From assembly GCF_014192215.1 (NCBI RefSeq), contig NZ_JACHXP010000003.1:119744-151743 (forward strand): a DNA stretch of 32,000 nt, given 5' to 3'. Positions 9,660 through 15,243 of this stretch are shown here, one piece after another. A program made the position numbers and the translations under genes. The DNA is from Halomonas cerina (lineage in GTDB: Bacteria; Pseudomonadota; Gammaproteobacteria; Pseudomonadales; Halomonadaceae). The notes under the pieces were generated by a model, which was not told the DNA's origin, searched no databases, and saw only the letters and a program-made list of their open reading frames with translations. Position 1 is the first letter of the stretch, and each line of letters begins with the position of its first letter.

Positions 9660-11048
9660 ATGGAAAGAGAGCAACGTTGCTGGCTGGTGGCCGAGGATGC
9701 GCTGGATATCAACCATCTGGAAGCGAAAGTGAGTGCCCTGGGCTGGGACGTGCAGCGCCTGCTGGCACCGCTGTCGGACTGTTGTCTGGAGACTGAGAGT
9801 GACGGTGGTGTCGGCCTGGTCCAACTCGAGGGCATGTCGGATGCTCAACTGGGTCAGCTGGAGCCGTTGATCCTGCGGAGTCACTGCCCGTGGCTGGCCA
9901 TTGCCGCGAGCGACACCCTGAGGGATGCCGACAGGCATCGCCTGGTAGCCACGCTGTGCGTCGGGTTCATGGAGCCCGATGTCGAGGTCGCCGAGCTCGA
10001 CTGCCTGATGCGGCGGGCACTCGCCCTGTCACGGCTCCAGCAGGATGGCCTGCGTGACGATGTCGCGACCGACAGGCGCTCCGACAGCGATGAGAGCGAG
10101 ATGGTCGGCACCACGCCAGCTATGTGGGAGCTCTTCCAGACCATCCGCAAGGTGGCGGCGGTGGAGGCACCGGTCCTCATTAGTGGCGAGTCCGGTACGG
10201 GGAAGGAGCTGACGGCACAGGCCATCCATGAGCGCTCGCCCCGTGCATCGGCCGGCTTTCATGCCATCAACTGTGGTGCACTGCCGGACCATCTGATCCA
10301 GTCGGAACTCTTTGGGCATGAGAAGGGGGCCTTCACCGGTGCGGTACACAAGAAGATCGGCCGTATCGAGGCCACGGATGGCGGTACCCTGTTTCTCGAC
10401 GAGATCGGCGACCTTCCCCTGGAGTTGCAGGTCAACCTGTTGCGCTTTCTCGAGACGCGATGTATCCAGCGCGTCGGCGGGTTGGAAGACATTCCCGTGG
10501 ATGTGCGCATCATTGCCGCCACCCACGTCGATCTAGAGAAGGCCGTCGAGGAGAGACGTTTTCGCGAGGATCTCTATCATCGTCTCAACGTGCTGCAGAT
10601 CAAGGTGCCGCCCCTGCGGGAGCGCCAGGAGGACATCGAGATCCTGGCCCGCTATTTCTTCGAGCGCTTCGCCAACGAGAAGTCCAGCCGCTTGAAGGGC
10701 TTCTCGCGTGAAGCCCTGCTGGTCATGCGCCAGTATCCCTGGCCCGGCAACGTCCGTGAGCTGATCAACCGCATTCGCCGCGCGATGGTCATGTGCGAAA
10801 ATCGGCTCATCCAGCCCGTGGATCTGGGCATCGACCGCCGCAAGGCCCCCCGCCATCTCATGACGCTCGATGAGGCGCGCGATCATGCCGAGCGTGAGGT
10901 GCTGGTCGCCGCTCTGGGACGCAACAAGCACAAGGTTCATCAGGCAGCCCGGGAACTGGGGGTGTCGCGCGTCACCATCTATCGCCTGATGGAGAAGCAC
11001 GGGTTGGCCCGCTCGCCGACGGCCGCACCGGCGACAGATTCAGATTAG
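9660..11048 (+). CDS. Sigma-54-dependent transcriptional activator (bEBP) with a receiver-like but degenerate N-terminal domain
   Basis: Present are Walker A GESGTGKE, the sigma-54 contact loop ELFGHEKGAFTGA, Walker B GGTLFLDEIGD and a C-terminal Fis-type HTH AARELGVSRVTIYRLMEKHGL. A GAGGTG SD is present. Confidence 0.9.
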   Translation: MEREQRCWLVAEDALDINHLEAKVSALGWDVQRLLAPLSDCCLETESDGGVGLVQLEGMSDAQLGQLEPLILRSHCPWLAIAASDTLRDADRHRLVATLCVGFMEPDVEVAELDCLMRRALALSRLQQDGLRDDVATDRRSDSDESEMVGTTPAMWELFQTIRKVAAVEAPVLISGESGTGKELTAQAIHERSPRASAGFHAINCGALPDHLIQSELFGHEKGAFTGAVHKKIGRIEATDGGTLFLDEIGDLPLELQVNLLRFLETRCIQRVGGLEDIPVDVRIIAATHVDLEKAVEERRFREDLYHRLNVLQIKVPPLRERQEDIEILARYFFERFANEKSSRLKGFSREALLVMRQYPWPGNVRELINRIRRAMVMCENRLIQPVDLGIDRRKAPRHLMTLDEARDHAEREVLVAALGRNKHKVHQAARELGVSRVTIYRLMEKHGLARSPTAAPATDSD

Positions 11049-11104
11049 CCACTGGCATGCCTGAACTCCTTCCTTCCTCAGCGCTGCCGATCCGTGTCTT
11101 CCTC

Positions 11105-11134
11105 AGGCCTGTCTGCTCCCTGACAGGCCTTTTT
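11105..11134 (+). terminator. Rho-independent terminator after the bEBP gene
   Basis: Stem AGGCCTGTC (11105-11113), an 8-nt loop and stem GACAGGCCT (11122-11130), followed by TTTT. Confidence 0.75.
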
Positions 11135-11267
11135 CGTGCTCGGGCCGAGGCCCTTCTGCCGCGCGCCTGACTCACGCCTGTGACACTTGGTCGATCATTT
11201 TCTAACTGTTTGATTTTTTTATATTTTACGGCGTATAACGCGTGCTGCACCCGTGGCAGGCGTGTTC

Positions 11268-11287
11268 ATGTAACAAAAGAGTTACAT
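11268..11287. promoter_or_regulatory. Candidate upstream activating sequence, perfect palindrome ATGTAAC-N6-GTTACAT
   Basis: This 7-6-7 perfect inverted repeat is centred about 62 bp upstream of the -24 GG, the position expected for a bEBP enhancer. Confidence 0.5.
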
Positions 11288-11292
11288 TCTAT

Positions 11293-11305
11293 TATCAGCA
11301 ATTTG
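11293..11305 (+). promoter_or_regulatory. IHF-like site between UAS and sigma-54 promoter
   Basis: TATCAGcaatTTG has one mismatch to WATCAA-N4-TTR. It is embedded in a very AT-rich stretch of an otherwise GC-rich genome. Confidence 0.35.
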
Positions 11306-11338
11306 ATTTTTCTTTAATAAAAACAATAACCTACAAGT

Positions 11339-11354
11339 TGGCACGCCTATTGCT
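11339..11354 (+). promoter_or_regulatory. Sigma-54 (-24/-12) promoter
   Basis: TGGCACG-CCTA-TTGCT is a perfect match to TGGCAC-N5-TTGCW. It lies 47 nt upstream of the first SD-preceded ATG (11401) and directly downstream of a bEBP gene. Confidence 0.85.
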
Positions 11355-11400
11355 CCTTAAATTGTAAAAAAGAGTGACTGAACGTTTTGGAGCTGCCGAC

Positions 11401-11781
11401 ATGCCCTTCCCCTCCTGCCCCATATGCCTTCATGCCAGCCCTCATCGGGCATGCCGCCTGTTCGGGCTGCTGCTGGGCCTCGCCATGGGGGTCGGGGGAG
11501 CGAGCGCCCAGGCACATGGCGTGGTCGGTGATACCGCAACCGGCGAGGGGGCGGCCGACGCGAGCGGGCTGGTGCGCCTGGATGATGAGAGGCTTGCAGC
11601 GATTCGCGGGCGCTACCTCGACGCTCGGAGCTTCACCGATCAGGACGGTGACTTCGTGATCCTCTGGGACGAGCGTCCCCCGGGAAACGCCGGCGGCAAA
11701 GGGCAGGGCAATGGCAAGTCGCTCTCCTCCGGGCTCGGCAATCAACAGCACACCCGCGTAACCAGCCATAGGGAGCAGTGA
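11401..11781 (+). CDS. Small secreted protein of unknown family (first gene of the sigma-54 operon)
   Basis: A GGAG SD lies 8 nt before ATG 11401. The signal-peptide-like N-terminus is RACRLFGLLLGLAMGVGGASAQA. Motifs LDDERLAAIRG and GDFVILWD are shared with the next ORF. The track start at 11374 would leave almost no 5' UTR after the predicted TSS. Confidence 0.55.
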   Translation: MPFPSCPICLHASPHRACRLFGLLLGLAMGVGGASAQAHGVVGDTATGEGAADASGLVRLDDERLAAIRGRYLDARSFTDQDGDFVILWDERPPGNAGGKGQGNGKSLSSGLGNQQHTRVTSHREQ

Positions 11782-11783
11782 AC

Positions 11784-12290
11784 ATGAGCGACCGCCATCT
11801 ACATTTCTCGCGTACCGCCCGCCGCTGGCTGCTGGTGGTGGCCCTGGCCACACCGGCCGCGGGCCTGCAGGCCGACGATGGCACCTCGGGGGCGCGGCTG
11901 AATCCCGGTGTCCTGCCCGGTGACATCGTCATCCTTCGCGATGTCGATTCGGCCGTATACGGCCAGGTCGAGCGCCATGCCGGGGAGATCACGTCGCGGG
12001 TCAATGCCCGCCATGGCGCCCTGGAGGCCCAGCAGCGGCTGATCGGCATCCAGGCTATCTCCCTCAGCGACGAACGGGCCGCCAGCATCCACGGCGGTGT
12101 GCAGGGATCGATACACCATCTACATCGGGCGCTGGGGACCCATCCGGGCATGGGCGCCCGCGCCACCGGCAGCGCCAGTCGGGCGCCATCCGTGCTCGGG
12201 GGAAGCGCTGGCGGCAGCGTTCGCTCGCTCACCTCGGGCATCGCCGACACCCTCGATGGGGCGCTGGCACCGCTGACAGGAGGGCGCTGA
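11784..12290 (+). CDS. Small secreted protein of unknown family (second gene)
   Basis: A GGGAG SD lies 8 nt before ATG 11784, and the start is 2 nt after the upstream stop. The signal peptide is RRWLLVVALATPAAGLQA. Motifs GDIVILRD and LSDERAASIHG are present, with a Gly/Ser/Ala-rich C-terminal tail. Confidence 0.6.
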   Translation: MSDRHLHFSRTARRWLLVVALATPAAGLQADDGTSGARLNPGVLPGDIVILRDVDSAVYGQVERHAGEITSRVNARHGALEAQQRLIGIQAISLSDERAASIHGGVQGSIHHLHRALGTHPGMGARATGSASRAPSVLGGSAGGSVRSLTSGIADTLDGALAPLTGGR

Positions 12291-12292
12291 GC

Positions 12293-12703
12293 ATGGATGA
12301 CGGGACGAGCACCATCCACACGTTGCTCCAGCTGGCAAGCCACCTAGAGGACCTCACGCCTCATCAGGTCAGCACCAAGATTCAGGACCACGCCTTTCGG
12401 CAGTCACAGGGCTGGCTGTCGGTCAATCAGACGGCGGGTCTCGGTAATGTACGGAGCCACCCCGAAGGGGGTGTTCTGAGCATCTCGGCCAGCCACCTCA
12501 ACGACACCATCCTGCAGCAGGTGCTGGCCGACAGGCAGGGGCTGAATGGTGACCGCGATGACCGAACGGATCTCTCGCGCAGGATCGAGGTCGACGAGTC
12601 GATCTTCGAGGGAGCCCGCGGCGTCATCCAGGTCAACCAGTCAGCCGGCACGGGGAACGCTACCCGCCACAGCTTTAGCATGTCCATACAGCTCGCGCGG
12701 TAG
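12293..12703 (+). CDS. Leaderless 136-aa protein with two degenerate copies of the amyloid-repeat core
   Basis: An AGGAGG SD is present and the ATG is 2 nt after the upstream stop. GWLSVNQTAGLGNVRSH (aa 40-56) and GVIQVNQSAGTGNATRH (aa 110-126) share G-x3-VN-x2-AG-x-GN with the repeats of the next gene. No N-terminal signal peptide is visible. Confidence 0.6.
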   Translation: MDDGTSTIHTLLQLASHLEDLTPHQVSTKIQDHAFRQSQGWLSVNQTAGLGNVRSHPEGGVLSISASHLNDTILQQVLADRQGLNGDRDDRTDLSRRIEVDESIFEGARGVIQVNQSAGTGNATRHSFSMSIQLAR

Positions 12704-12755
12704 GTAGCGACATCGCAATGCAACGAAACGCGTTGGTTCATTCAGGAGAAAGCTC

Positions 12756-13913
12756 ATGACCACCTTCAAGAAAGCACCGCTGGCCTTGGCCGTTACCGCA
12801 CTGATGGCCACCCCCTACGCCCTGGCCGATGGCGTCAACAACAGCTTCATCGGCAGCTACAACAAGTTCGACACCGACAGCACCATCGACTCCGATTTCG
12901 ACAATCGGATCGATGTGGAACTGCGCCACGACTCGGACACCTACAAGGACTTCTACGTCAATGTCTGGACCTTTGACCCGGCGCGCCACTACTCCGGGGC
13001 CACCGTGGACAGCAAGCAGCTGATCAACTACGCCGACGTGACCAACCGCATGGCCGAGAACAACGCCACCCTGAATGGCAATGCACTGGAAGGTGCCTCG
13101 GGCAACGTGGGCGTCAACGTGGCGGCCGGTGACAGCAACAGTCAGGCCAATGACGCTGCCCTGTCGGCCTCGGATGCCGAACGGGTATTCGGCCAGGCCG
13201 CGGCCTTCTCGGCCCAGTCCTCCTCCAACACCTATGTGGCAAGCACCGGTAGCCCCAACAACGCCACTCTCGCCGATTATGCCCTGCAGGGCGCCACCGG
13301 CAATATCGGCGTCAACGTGGCCGCCGGGGTCGGCAACGCCCAGCAGAACTCGCTGGCCGCCTCCTCCAATACCCGGTCCGGCTCTGCCGATGCCACCACC
13401 GGTGGCGTGCAGACCGCCTACTACAACTACAGCCGCAGCCAGGGCCACACCGAGACCTTCACCAACCGGGTCGGCGTCAGGGTGTCCGGGGTGATGGTGG
13501 GCGGCTACCTCGGCGGCGGCAGCGGCGGCTACGCGGGCACCTGGGAGCAGACCAACCAGGTCTACCCGGAGATCTGGCTGGGCGGCTCCGAGGCAAGCGG
13601 CCACCCGGGGGGCTCCACCTACGTGGGTCACCTGGACTTCGATGGCAACAGTGCCAACACCGACCAGTTCGCCGGCACGGAGCGAGGCCGCCTCGGCTTC
13701 CGCGAGGCGGGCCTGATGGCCATGGGCGGCACCCTGTCCGGCGGCGTGACCACCACCAACACCGTCTATATCGCCGCCGAGAACAACGCCACCCTGAGCG
13801 ACTACGCCCTGTTGGGCGCCAGTGGCAATATCGGCGTGAACGTGGCCGCGGGCAACAACAACCTGCAGCGCAACTCCCTGGCCATCGCCTCGGCCACGGG
13901 TGGAACGCAGTAA
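12756..13913 (+). CDS. Secreted FapC-like repeat protein (putative functional-amyloid or adhesin major subunit)
   Basis: An AGGAGA SD and the Sec signal peptide MTTFKKAPLALAVTALMATPYALA are present. There are three 37-aa repeats of the form NNATL-x3-AL-x-GA-x-GN[VI]GVNVAAG-x2-N-x-Q-x-N. The protein is Cys-free and rich in N/Q/G/A/S/T. Confidence 0.8.
   Translation: MTTFKKAPLALAVTALMATPYALADGVNNSFIGSYNKFDTDSTIDSDFDNRIDVELRHDSDTYKDFYVNVWTFDPARHYSGATVDSKQLINYADVTNRMAENNATLNGNALEGASGNVGVNVAAGDSNSQANDAALSASDAERVFGQAAAFSAQSSSNTYVASTGSPNNATLADYALQGATGNIGVNVAAGVGNAQQNSLAASSNTRSGSADATTGGVQTAYYNYSRSQGHTETFTNRVGVRVSGVMVGGYLGGGSGGYAGTWEQTNQVYPEIWLGGSEASGHPGGSTYVGHLDFDGNSANTDQFAGTERGRLGFREAGLMAMGGTLSGGVTTTNTVYIAAENNATLSDYALLGASGNIGVNVAAGNNNLQRNSLAIASATGGTQ
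13059..13169 (+). repeat. Amyloid-type imperfect repeat R1 (aa 102-138)
   Basis: The R1 sequence is NNATLNGNALEGASGNVGVNVAAGDSNSQANDAALSA. Confidence 0.85.
13257..13367 (+). repeat. Amyloid-type imperfect repeat R2 (aa 168-204)
   Basis: The R2 sequence is NNATLADYALQGATGNIGVNVAAGVGNAQQNSLAASS. Confidence 0.85.
13782..13892 (+). repeat. Amyloid-type imperfect repeat R3 (aa 343-379)
   Basis: The R3 sequence is NNATLSDYALLGASGNIGVNVAAGNNNLQRNSLAIAS. It is also similar to R2 at the DNA level. Confidence 0.85.
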
Positions 13914-13954
13914 ACCCTCGGCCGGGGCCTTCCCGGCCGACGGTGCCACATGCC

Positions 13955-13990
13955 ACCCGGCCTGCCGAGCAGGCCGGGTGTTTGTTGTGG
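13955..13990 (+). terminator. Hairpin terminator/attenuator after the repeat-protein gene
   Basis: A 10-bp stem ACCCGGCCTG / CAGGCCGGGT with a 5-nt loop is followed by GTTTGTTGT. A second GC hairpin (TCGGCCGG...CCGGCCGA) lies at about 13919-13939. Confidence 0.6.
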
Positions 13991-14157
13991 TGCGCCAGGC
14001 ATGGCGTGAGGCCTGTGACTGTAAGGACTGGTCAGGCACGCTGCGCTGACGACGACCAACGGAGGGGTGGTCTACACTTGGCTAGCTTAATACGCTAGTC
14101 ATCGGTAACCAGCAATATACACAGCCGAGGTCCGGCAGACAGTAGAGGCACAAGGAG

Positions 14158-15243
14158 ATGAGTGTGGAAAAAACAGATGTTTTCATGACGAAGCGGGTGC
14201 CACCCCTCTCCCTCTTCCTCATGGCGGCCTCCTTCGGAGGGGCCACGGCAGTGCAGGCGCAGATGACCGGTGACGACGGCGAGGTGGTGCGTCAGGCCCG
14301 ACCCAGCCAGAGCGTGGAGAATGTGCTGAGGGAGGAACACGCGCTCTTCTCGGACCGGCTGACCATCGAACCGGGCATCAACTACTCCTACTCCGATCGC
14401 TCCCAGCTGGCGCTGCGCGGTTTCCTGGCCTTGGATGCCATCTTCCTGGGCAATATCGATGTCGATACGGTCGAAAGCCACATCACTACCTTCGATATCA
14501 ATACCCGCTACGGCCTGACCGACCGGCTCGAGGTGGGCCTCAATCTCCCCTTCGTCTATCGCAGCAGCACCTACCAGTCGATCGGGGCCGATAATGATAC
14601 TGAGCAGAATGAAGAAACCTCGGTGGATGAGTCGGATGTAGGGGATATCAGCCTGACCTTCGCCTACCGGATGCTGCCGGAGACCGAGACCCGCCCCGAC
14701 CTGGTATGGAACTTCGCCGTCCGGGCGCCCACCGGTACAGACCCCTACGGCATTGCGACCAGAGAAGCGGGGGACAATCTATTTGTACCCACCGAACTAC
14801 CCACGGGCAATGGCGTCTGGGGGGTGAGCACGGGGATCTCGGCGCTCAAGACTCTGGACCCGGCGATCGTCTTCGCCAACCTGGGCTTCACCTACAACTT
14901 CGAGGAGAGCTTCGACGATATCTCGGCAACGGACGGCGACCAGCCGGGCGACGTCAAGCTGGGGGACAGCATCCGCGCCGGCTTCGGCACGGCCTTTGCT
15001 CTCAATGAACGCTTCAGCCTGTCGCTCTCCTATGCCCATGAGTACATCAAGAAGTCGGAAACGACGACCGAGGAAGGGGGGACCCGTGAGGTGATCGGCA
15101 GCGATGCCAATGTCGGGGTAATGAGCCTGGGCGGGACCTATGCCATGAGCGACAGTACCTCCCTCGTCACCAGCCTGGGGGTAGGGCTCACCGATGATGC
15201 CTCGGATGTCAGCCTGACCTTCCGCATGCCCTTCCAGATGTAA
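14158..15243 (+). CDS. Outer-membrane beta-barrel protein (transporter-like; occupies the position FapF has in fap operons)
   Basis: The signal peptide is KRVPPLSLFLMAASFGGATAVQAQ. Alternating amphipathic strands run throughout, with the motifs DVGDISLTFAYRML and VRAPTGTDPY, and the aromatic-rich C-terminus LTFRMPFQM. GTG 14164 (AGGAG SD 6 nt upstream) or ATG 14185 are alternative starts. Confidence 0.72.
   Translation: MSVEKTDVFMTKRVPPLSLFLMAASFGGATAVQAQMTGDDGEVVRQARPSQSVENVLREEHALFSDRLTIEPGINYSYSDRSQLALRGFLALDAIFLGNIDVDTVESHITTFDINTRYGLTDRLEVGLNLPFVYRSSTYQSIGADNDTEQNEETSVDESDVGDISLTFAYRMLPETETRPDLVWNFAVRAPTGTDPYGIATREAGDNLFVPTELPTGNGVWGVSTGISALKTLDPAIVFANLGFTYNFEESFDDISATDGDQPGDVKLGDSIRAGFGTAFALNERFSLSLSYAHEYIKKSETTTEEGGTREVIGSDANVGVMSLGGTYAMSDSTSLVTSLGVGLTDDASDVSLTFRMPFQM

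Follow-up and report, generated by a model that had tools for sequence, protein, structure and literature searches.

The open reading frame at positions 12293-12703 of a 32,000-nucleotide stretch of Halomonas cerina DNA (the whole stretch analysed here, hereafter the window) was identified by sequence comparison as a copy of fapB without the codons for residues 2-77; in the Fap amyloid system, fapB encodes the minor subunit or nucleator. Judging from alignments, 76 codons (228 bp) were lost in frame, and with them the Sec signal peptide and repeat 1 of the original three. The reading that we favor, with a probability of roughly 0.7, is that the gene is a non-exportable and redundant fapB relic drifting under relaxed constraint toward a pseudogene. 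The encoded protein is 100% identical to MBB3189577.1 / WP_183324326.1 of H. cerina, which carries the NCBI label hypothetical protein; on our analysis, it should be relabeled as fapB with a 5' deletion, within a fap locus that is both reduced and duplicated. The product is probably a degraded member of the FapB family and no new component of the amyloid system. The features of the locus are as follows, with positions referring to the window.

9660-11048, forward strand: sigma-54-dependent transcriptional activator (Pfam Sigma54_activat, E = 1e-69), present at the same position in comparison loci L001-L018 and L030
11339-11354, forward strand: sigma-54 promoter consensus TGGCACGCCTATTGCT, located 20 nt before orf135 and probably driving orf135-fapA-fapB(del)-fapC
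11374-11781, forward strand: orf135, a predicted small secreted protein with an N-terminal hydrophobic segment, which precedes fapA in Halomonas fap loci
11778-12290, forward strand: fapA-like gene of full length (weak NCBIfam FapA match, E = 4e-5; residues 1-168 align with the L002 homologue)
12278-12283, forward strand: Shine-Dalgarno sequence AGGAGG, read directly from the DNA, within the 3' end of fapA and 9 nt before the ATG
12293-12703, forward strand: fapB(del2-77), with a predicted in-frame loss of codons 2-77 directly after the start and with repeats 2 and 3 kept (NCBIfam FapB; alignment to the paralogue P0003)
12410-12460, forward strand: repeat 2 core GWLSVNQTAGLGNVRSH, residues 40-56, degenerate
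12620-12670, forward strand: repeat 3 core GVIQVNQSAGTGNATRH, residues 110-126, nearly intact
12633-13874, no strand assigned: repeat-like tract; one Logan contig breaks off exactly at 12633 and another starts exactly at 13874
12756-13913, forward strand: fapC-like major amyloid subunit (NCBIfam FapC, E = 2e-50), intact, with a signal peptide and three GN[VI]GVNVAAG repeats
13954-13980, forward strand: intrinsic terminator after fapC, with a 12-bp stem and a T-rich tail
13990-14060, no strand assigned: approximate fapD-fapE deletion site, placed by flank alignment in the 244-bp fapC-fapF gap
14158-15243, forward strand: fapF-like outer-membrane amyloid transporter (NCBIfam FapF, E = 7.5e-108), intact

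The frame opens with an ATG, as read from the window sequence, and encodes 136 aa. The fapA-like gene stops at 12288-12290 and the ATG follows 2 nt on (TGA-gc-ATG), so that the junction reads ...ggagggcgcTGAgcATG; this spacing and the AGGAGG motif bear out the translational coupling to the preceding gene that had been proposed from the sequence alone. The same sequence-only reading had described a leaderless small protein with no upstream start available, and both parts of this description held. The best 12-residue hydropathy in the product was 0.78, with no N-terminal hydrophobic segment, compared to 1.67-2.38 for the other four fap-locus proteins of the window, and no in-frame ATG, GTG, or TTG occurs across the open stretch of ~120 codons that reaches back to a stop at 11921-11923. 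The two repeat cores, of 17 residues each, are offset by 210 nt, which equals exactly the 70 residues reported earlier, and both contain the VNQ-x-AG-x-GN core. In repeat 2, the core is altered by Q54R and N56H and the residues just downstream by F58E, A61V, and G63S, and N126H is the sole replacement at an invariant residue in repeat 3. The product also contains the peptides IQDHAFR and IEVDESIFEGAR. Third-position GC content was 0.75 over the first 63 codons and 0.86 over the remainder (codons 64-136), a difference that is only suggestive.

Comparison with profile models assigned the product to the FapB family. It matched NCBIfam FapB (NF058557) with 62 bits over profile positions 79-189 of 190; the cutoff of this Pseudomonas-trained model is 190 bits, and the intact FapBs of Halomonas, at 95-99 bits, also fall under it. 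The FapBC domain (PF27129) is precomputed for the product, and a search with a Pfam copy that predates this model gave no match. All 37 close homologues, mostly from Halomonas, carry PF27129, and they are 189-233 aa long, bar one 76-aa fragment; IQVNQSAG and AG-x-GN are invariant across them. In an alignment of 18 homologues, a signal peptide and an extra first repeat, GVSTTNMAAGDGNLQSN, were present in all aligned sequences save the window frame, in which only the second and third of the three FapB repeats are found. Against the 212-aa H. cerina paralogue P0003, the numbering is offset by 76 (residue n of the product pairs with n+76), and P0003 itself spans the whole length of the FapB profile (positions 8-188). 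When 1.84 billion representative proteins were searched exhaustively, 307 matched, and the best 150 of these were almost all 190-265 aa long, with the match beginning beyond residue 75. Given the E-value of 4e-17 for the FapB model and the conservation of both cores in the 37 homologues, the likeness of the repeats to those of amyloid subunits is judged to be no chance match, and the kinship to the subunit repeats first noticed in the letters is thereby upheld.

The gene also lies between fapA and fapC, as is canonical for fapB. The sequence-only reading knew of no described Fap component with such properties; this part has to be given up, since the frame is best explained as FapB without residues 2-77 in the canonical fapA-fapB-fapC slot. 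Homologues do extend upstream with a signal peptide, the finding that this reading had itself named as a refutation, but the start is not misjudged here, the extension being absent from the DNA. Relative to the FapB of the Pseudomonas fapABCDEF operon, the product is homologous over its full length to the C-terminal two thirds, and it shares the operon slot, the translational coupling, and the motif G-x3-(I/V)NQ-x-AG-x-GN; in contrast to that protein, it has neither Sec signal peptide nor repeat 1 and is altered at four family-invariant residues. FapB proteins with two repeats occur naturally in Acidithiobacillus and Aeromonas (PMC3792158). These proteins, and likewise the representatives P0254, P0289, and P0299, are 137-144 aa long and have a repeat spacing similar to that of the H. 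cerina product, but they keep the N-terminal signal peptide, whereas the window gene appears to have arisen recently, by deletion, from a gene with three repeats. A profile search of the PDB gave weak matches only, and the FapC fibril entries 9nqd and 9u4u were the sole solved relatives. The AlphaFold2 model of the product, built on a 31-sequence alignment, had a mean pLDDT of 36 and no confident fold; relatives have been reported as unfolded monomers (PMC12459412).

The fap loci of other Halomonas species indicate how the truncation may have arisen. In ~14 of them, the fapB ATG lies exactly 2 nt after the fapA stop, with the same purine-rich Shine-Dalgarno motif and the same TGA-nn-ATG arrangement, and fapA ends in ...PLTG(G)R-x-TGA (for example, ...gggaggcgcTGAgcATG in L012). 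Because of this shared fapA-fapB spacing, the ATG at 12293 and its Shine-Dalgarno sequence are regarded as the ancestral initiation signals of fapB. Two other ways of supplying an N-terminus were considered and ruled out. An upstream extension or a frameshifted N-terminus is incompatible with the upstream DNA, which is occupied by a complete and conserved fapA in another frame, and a FapA-FapB fusion by readthrough or frameshifting would find neither an in-frame path nor a slippery site in the sequence.

The surroundings were compared with 79 loci obtained from a genome-contig scan, among which H. cerina itself is not represented. In ~20 Halomonas species, the syntenic order is a FemAB-like gene, the sigma-54 activator, orf135, fapA-fapB-fapC-fapD (fapD encoding a C39 peptidase)-fapE-fapF, ftsB, and ispD. 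The promoter sequence at 11339-11354 was the single zero-mismatch match to TGGCAC-N5-TTGCW in the 32-kb window. This perfect sigma-54 promoter and the adjoining activator conserved across Halomonas imply that Fap expression in Halomonas would depend on sigma-54 and an enhancer-binding protein. No terminator was found between fapA, the remnant, and fapC, the first one lying after fapC, where L002 and L004 have a homologous hairpin. The promoter match and the uninterrupted stretch from fapA to fapC indicate that the remnant would still lie within a transcribed operon. A literature search on Fap in Halomonas returned nothing specific.

The fap genes around the remnant are intact. The C-terminus of FapA (...PLTGGR*) is conserved in relatives. 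FapC is 76% identical to its counterpart in H. saccharevitans and 94% identical to its H. cerina paralogue, and the fapC gene has a Shine-Dalgarno sequence of its own, 52 nt downstream of the remnant's stop. Over residues 1-361, FapF shares 79% identity with its orthologues in L002 and L004. The match of the Halomonas FapF-like protein to the Pseudomonas FapF model, which has 420 positions, is confined to positions 85-418, and from this alignment the protein appears to do without the N-terminal periplasmic coiled-coil region.

The locus is also reduced downstream of fapC. The fapC-fapF gap measures 244 bp in the window compared to ~1.8 kb in relatives (L002-L018 and L030, with fapD and fapE confirmed in L002 and L004), and these 244 bp retain the hairpin that follows fapC and the sequence upstream of fapF. 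Queries with FapD and FapE by tblastn found no match anywhere in the 32-kb window, and no gene is annotated between FapC and FapF in the contig that carries the locus in H. cerina. In contrast to the complete fapABCDEF system, the window locus thus has neither the fapD protease gene nor fapE, and a FapD is encoded on another contig of the genome.

That contig, 459 kb long, holds a second H. cerina fap locus, whose FapB (P0003, MBB3188830), FapC (P0308, MBB3188829), and FapD (P0077, MBB3188828) have consecutive accessions. The window locus lies on a 302-kb contig of the same assembly (MBB3189574 for the activator and MBB3189577 to MBB3189579 for FapB(del), FapC, and FapF). The truncated fapB is redundant, since an intact full-length paralogue exists in the same genome. 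Divergence between the two FapB copies is uneven along the protein: residues 2-113 of the truncated product are ~69% identical to P0003, and residues 114-136 show only two differences. The bounds of the tract at 12633 and 13874 fall at the start of repeat 3 and the end of fapC, respectively, and we infer that the paralogous locus probably has a near-identical version of this tract, as a result of gene conversion or of a recent copying event.

The truncated copy has changed much faster than its paralogue. In a neighbor-joining tree, the product was sister to P0003 with a terminal branch ~7 times longer. Tajima-type tests with 34 outgroups assigned roughly 14-24 unique changes to it compared to 1-6 in P0003, and parsimony placed 30 replacements on its branch and 5 on that of P0003 (p = 2e-5). 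At the 56 columns that are at least 90% conserved in the other 36 sequences, it deviated at 9, compared to a median of 1 and a maximum of 5 for the others, and four of its replacements (Q54R, N56H, G63S, and N126H) hit columns invariant in 36 of 36 other homologues. Replacements occurred at 14% of conserved and 28% of variable columns (Fisher p = 0.06), a pattern close to site-blind. The adjacent FapC, used as a control, differs from its paralogue at 23 of 385 residues, split evenly between the two; since FapC shows no acceleration, the acceleration is specific to the truncated gene. The frame has stayed intact, with no stop or indel, through ~30 replacements. In simulations, ~50 neutral substitutions were needed to produce that many, and 17-24% of the trials ended with no stop. 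At a chance of 0.17-0.24, an open frame is weak evidence for retention; indels would lower this chance further, so that some retention pressure is possible.

Fast, nearly site-blind divergence and redundancy with an intact paralogue together argue for relaxed constraint, and they carry the preferred reading of a decaying relic. Under this reading, an in-frame deletion of 76 codons after the ATG would have taken the signal peptide and repeat 1 and left the ribosome-binding site, the ATG, and repeats 2 and 3 in place. The reduced locus would then consist of the sigma-54 activator, the sigma-54 promoter, orf135, fapA, fapB(del), fapC, the terminator, and fapF, with fapD and fapE lost, and the second locus elsewhere in the genome would keep full-length fapB, fapC, and fapD. 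Given the surviving native signals, fapB(del) is probably still transcribed and translated. In Pseudomonas, Fap proteins cross the inner membrane via Sec with type I signal peptides, reported for 104 of 108 Fap proteins, and FapB, FapC, and FapE leave through FapF (PMC3684753). Secretion of FapC requires FapD, and an essential part in it has been reported for FapB and FapE too (PMC5557850). By analogy, a FapB with no signal peptide would stay in the cytoplasm, outside the Sec-to-FapF route, and would be unable to nucleate or join surface fibrils. The window locus by itself would lack exported FapB, FapD, and FapE, and any output of its fapA, fapC, and fapF would rely on the second locus.

Such a history resembles that of other bacterial relics in duplicated operons, which likewise combine redundancy with an intact paralogue, a lost targeting element, accelerated near-neutral change, and loss of neighboring genes (here fapD and fapE). 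The gene differs from bacterial pseudogenes by its open frame and native translation signals and so would escape pseudogene flagging. Besides the open frame, some observations run counter to decay. The deletion is exactly in frame, with the native Shine-Dalgarno sequence and ATG preserved, and replacements are somewhat rarer at conserved columns, with repeat 3 nearly untouched. The preservation of repeat 3 could be due to gene conversion from the paralogue across 12633-13874. The charge-adding changes in repeat 2 (to R, H, and E) could equally reflect selection against cytoplasmic aggregation. If the gene is a relic, it represents a natural fapB with neither signal peptide nor first repeat, in which drift marks the residues that are dispensable once export is gone. 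It also points to Halomonas genomes with two fap loci, one of which can be reduced to fapA-fapC-fapF with fapC intact, and suggests satellite copies of the subunit and pore genes that are served in trans by a complete operon.

The foremost alternative is that the fragment acquired a function in the cytoplasm, binding pre-secretory FapC or FapB as a holdase, an anti-aggregation factor, or a regulator of subunit supply. It would agree with the intact native Shine-Dalgarno sequence and ATG within an apparently functional sigma-54 operon free of internal terminators, with a frame that stayed open despite ~30 replacements, and with charge-adding changes in repeat 2 that would reduce self-aggregation while repeat 3 was kept. 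We consider it unlikely, because the truncated form is found in a single genome (the 37 close relatives include no second confirmed leaderless homologue), and its replacements, near site-blind overall, strike the invariant Q/N core residues that would be needed for amyloid-repeat recognition. In addition, the tract shared with the paralogue would account for the preservation of repeat 3, and since fapD and fapE are gone as well, the locus seems to have been reduced in general. The proposal of a holdase, capping factor, or nucleator, made from the sequence alone, accordingly found no support: change ~6-fold faster than in the paralogue and the loss of invariant Q/N residues are what is expected of a redundant relic. 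A more specific version, in which a signal-less two-repeat FapB with a charge-damped repeat 2 was retained as a cytoplasmic holdase or titrator acting on newly made FapC or FapB, is very doubtful. If it were true, Fap or curli-type amyloid pathways would gain their first cytoplasmic component, the protein would exemplify a chaperone that arose from its own client by losing the signal peptide, and the biogenesis of functional amyloid would include a quality-control step in the cytoplasm.

The proposed role has functional analogues in the curli system. CsgB, the curli nucleator, is a minor subunit that shares homology with the major subunit, and chaperones of the CsgC/CsgE/CsgH type block premature fibrillation. 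None of these has a sequence relationship to the truncated product; all are periplasmic or exported, and none is known to be a leaderless copy of the subunit.

The same drift in an open frame would also be accounted for if the product had no function and only its translation had been kept, for coupling, mRNA stability, or Rho protection ahead of fapC; fapA, fapC, and fapF would then form a satellite operon that receives FapB, FapD, and FapE in trans. The fapA, fapC, and fapF genes of the window are indeed intact, FapC evolves symmetrically with its paralogue, and the remnant keeps the ancestral coupling signal, with no terminator before the end of fapC. On the other hand, fapC has its own Shine-Dalgarno sequence, so that coupling is not obviously required, trans-complementation between fap loci has no direct evidence, and the same data fit a plain relic; we rate this explanation as quite improbable.

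Although a draft assembly with two fap loci and 94%-identical fapC genes is a setting prone to misassembly, it is hardly credible that the true gene is a normal exported FapB obscured by a wrong start, a frameshift, or an assembly collapse of the paralogous loci, because no upstream frame encodes a signal peptide or repeat 1, a conserved full-length fapA fills the space, the junction region differs from the paralogue by ~30% in protein sequence and so is no chimera, and the Logan assembly, though probably made from the same reads, is identical across both junctions. Specifically, Logan contigs of SRR10053986 were identical to the window over 9660-12633 and from 13874 onwards. The fapA/fapB(del) junction with the first 113 codons of the frame was exact in this assembly, and so was the fapC-fapF junction. 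The Logan assembly is independent, but probably from the same read set as the deposited one; the two deletions are not an artefact of one assembler.

A second leaderless homologue was sought among the 37 close relatives and the best 150 of the 307 representatives; three short candidates were found and none was confirmed. P0243 was rejected as a contig-end fragment whose frame remains open to the contig edge. P0212 (326-700 of L080, an ENA metagenome contig of 826 bp) is a 124-aa FapB-like frame with two repeats and no signal peptide; an in-frame stop lies ~24 codons upstream on this very short contig, and P0212 may be a second leaderless or a frameshifted fapB.

The gene orf135 matched nothing in Pfam or NCBIfam. 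The last 65 aa of its product are kept in most of L002-L017 and in L030, with the conserved pattern (F)VILWDERP...G-x-G...STGLGNxQ(S/H)T-x-VT. It shares 4 nt with the start of fapA, and most Halomonas fap loci at the syntenic site have it ahead of that gene. Unlike the Halomonas loci, the Pseudomonas fapABCDEF set does not include it, and orf135 may be an undescribed Fap accessory gene.

The differences between the two H. cerina FapC paralogues cluster at residues 107-112, 173-178, and 348-354, just before the repeat cores (NATL[NGN/SDH]AL, NATL[ADY/DRH]AL, and NATL[SDY/GGL]AL), and residues 226-347 are identical. This clustering could result from patchy gene conversion or from localized diversification. 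Multiple fap loci seem to be common in Halomonas. In Halomonas sp. NO4 (L001, 8001-16620), a tandem duplication has placed an extra fapB-fapC pair between the sigma-54 activator and orf135-fapA-fapB-fapC...fapF. The insert holds a further ~2 kb, probably fapD/fapE, and two FapD proteins of this genome are encoded on the same contig.
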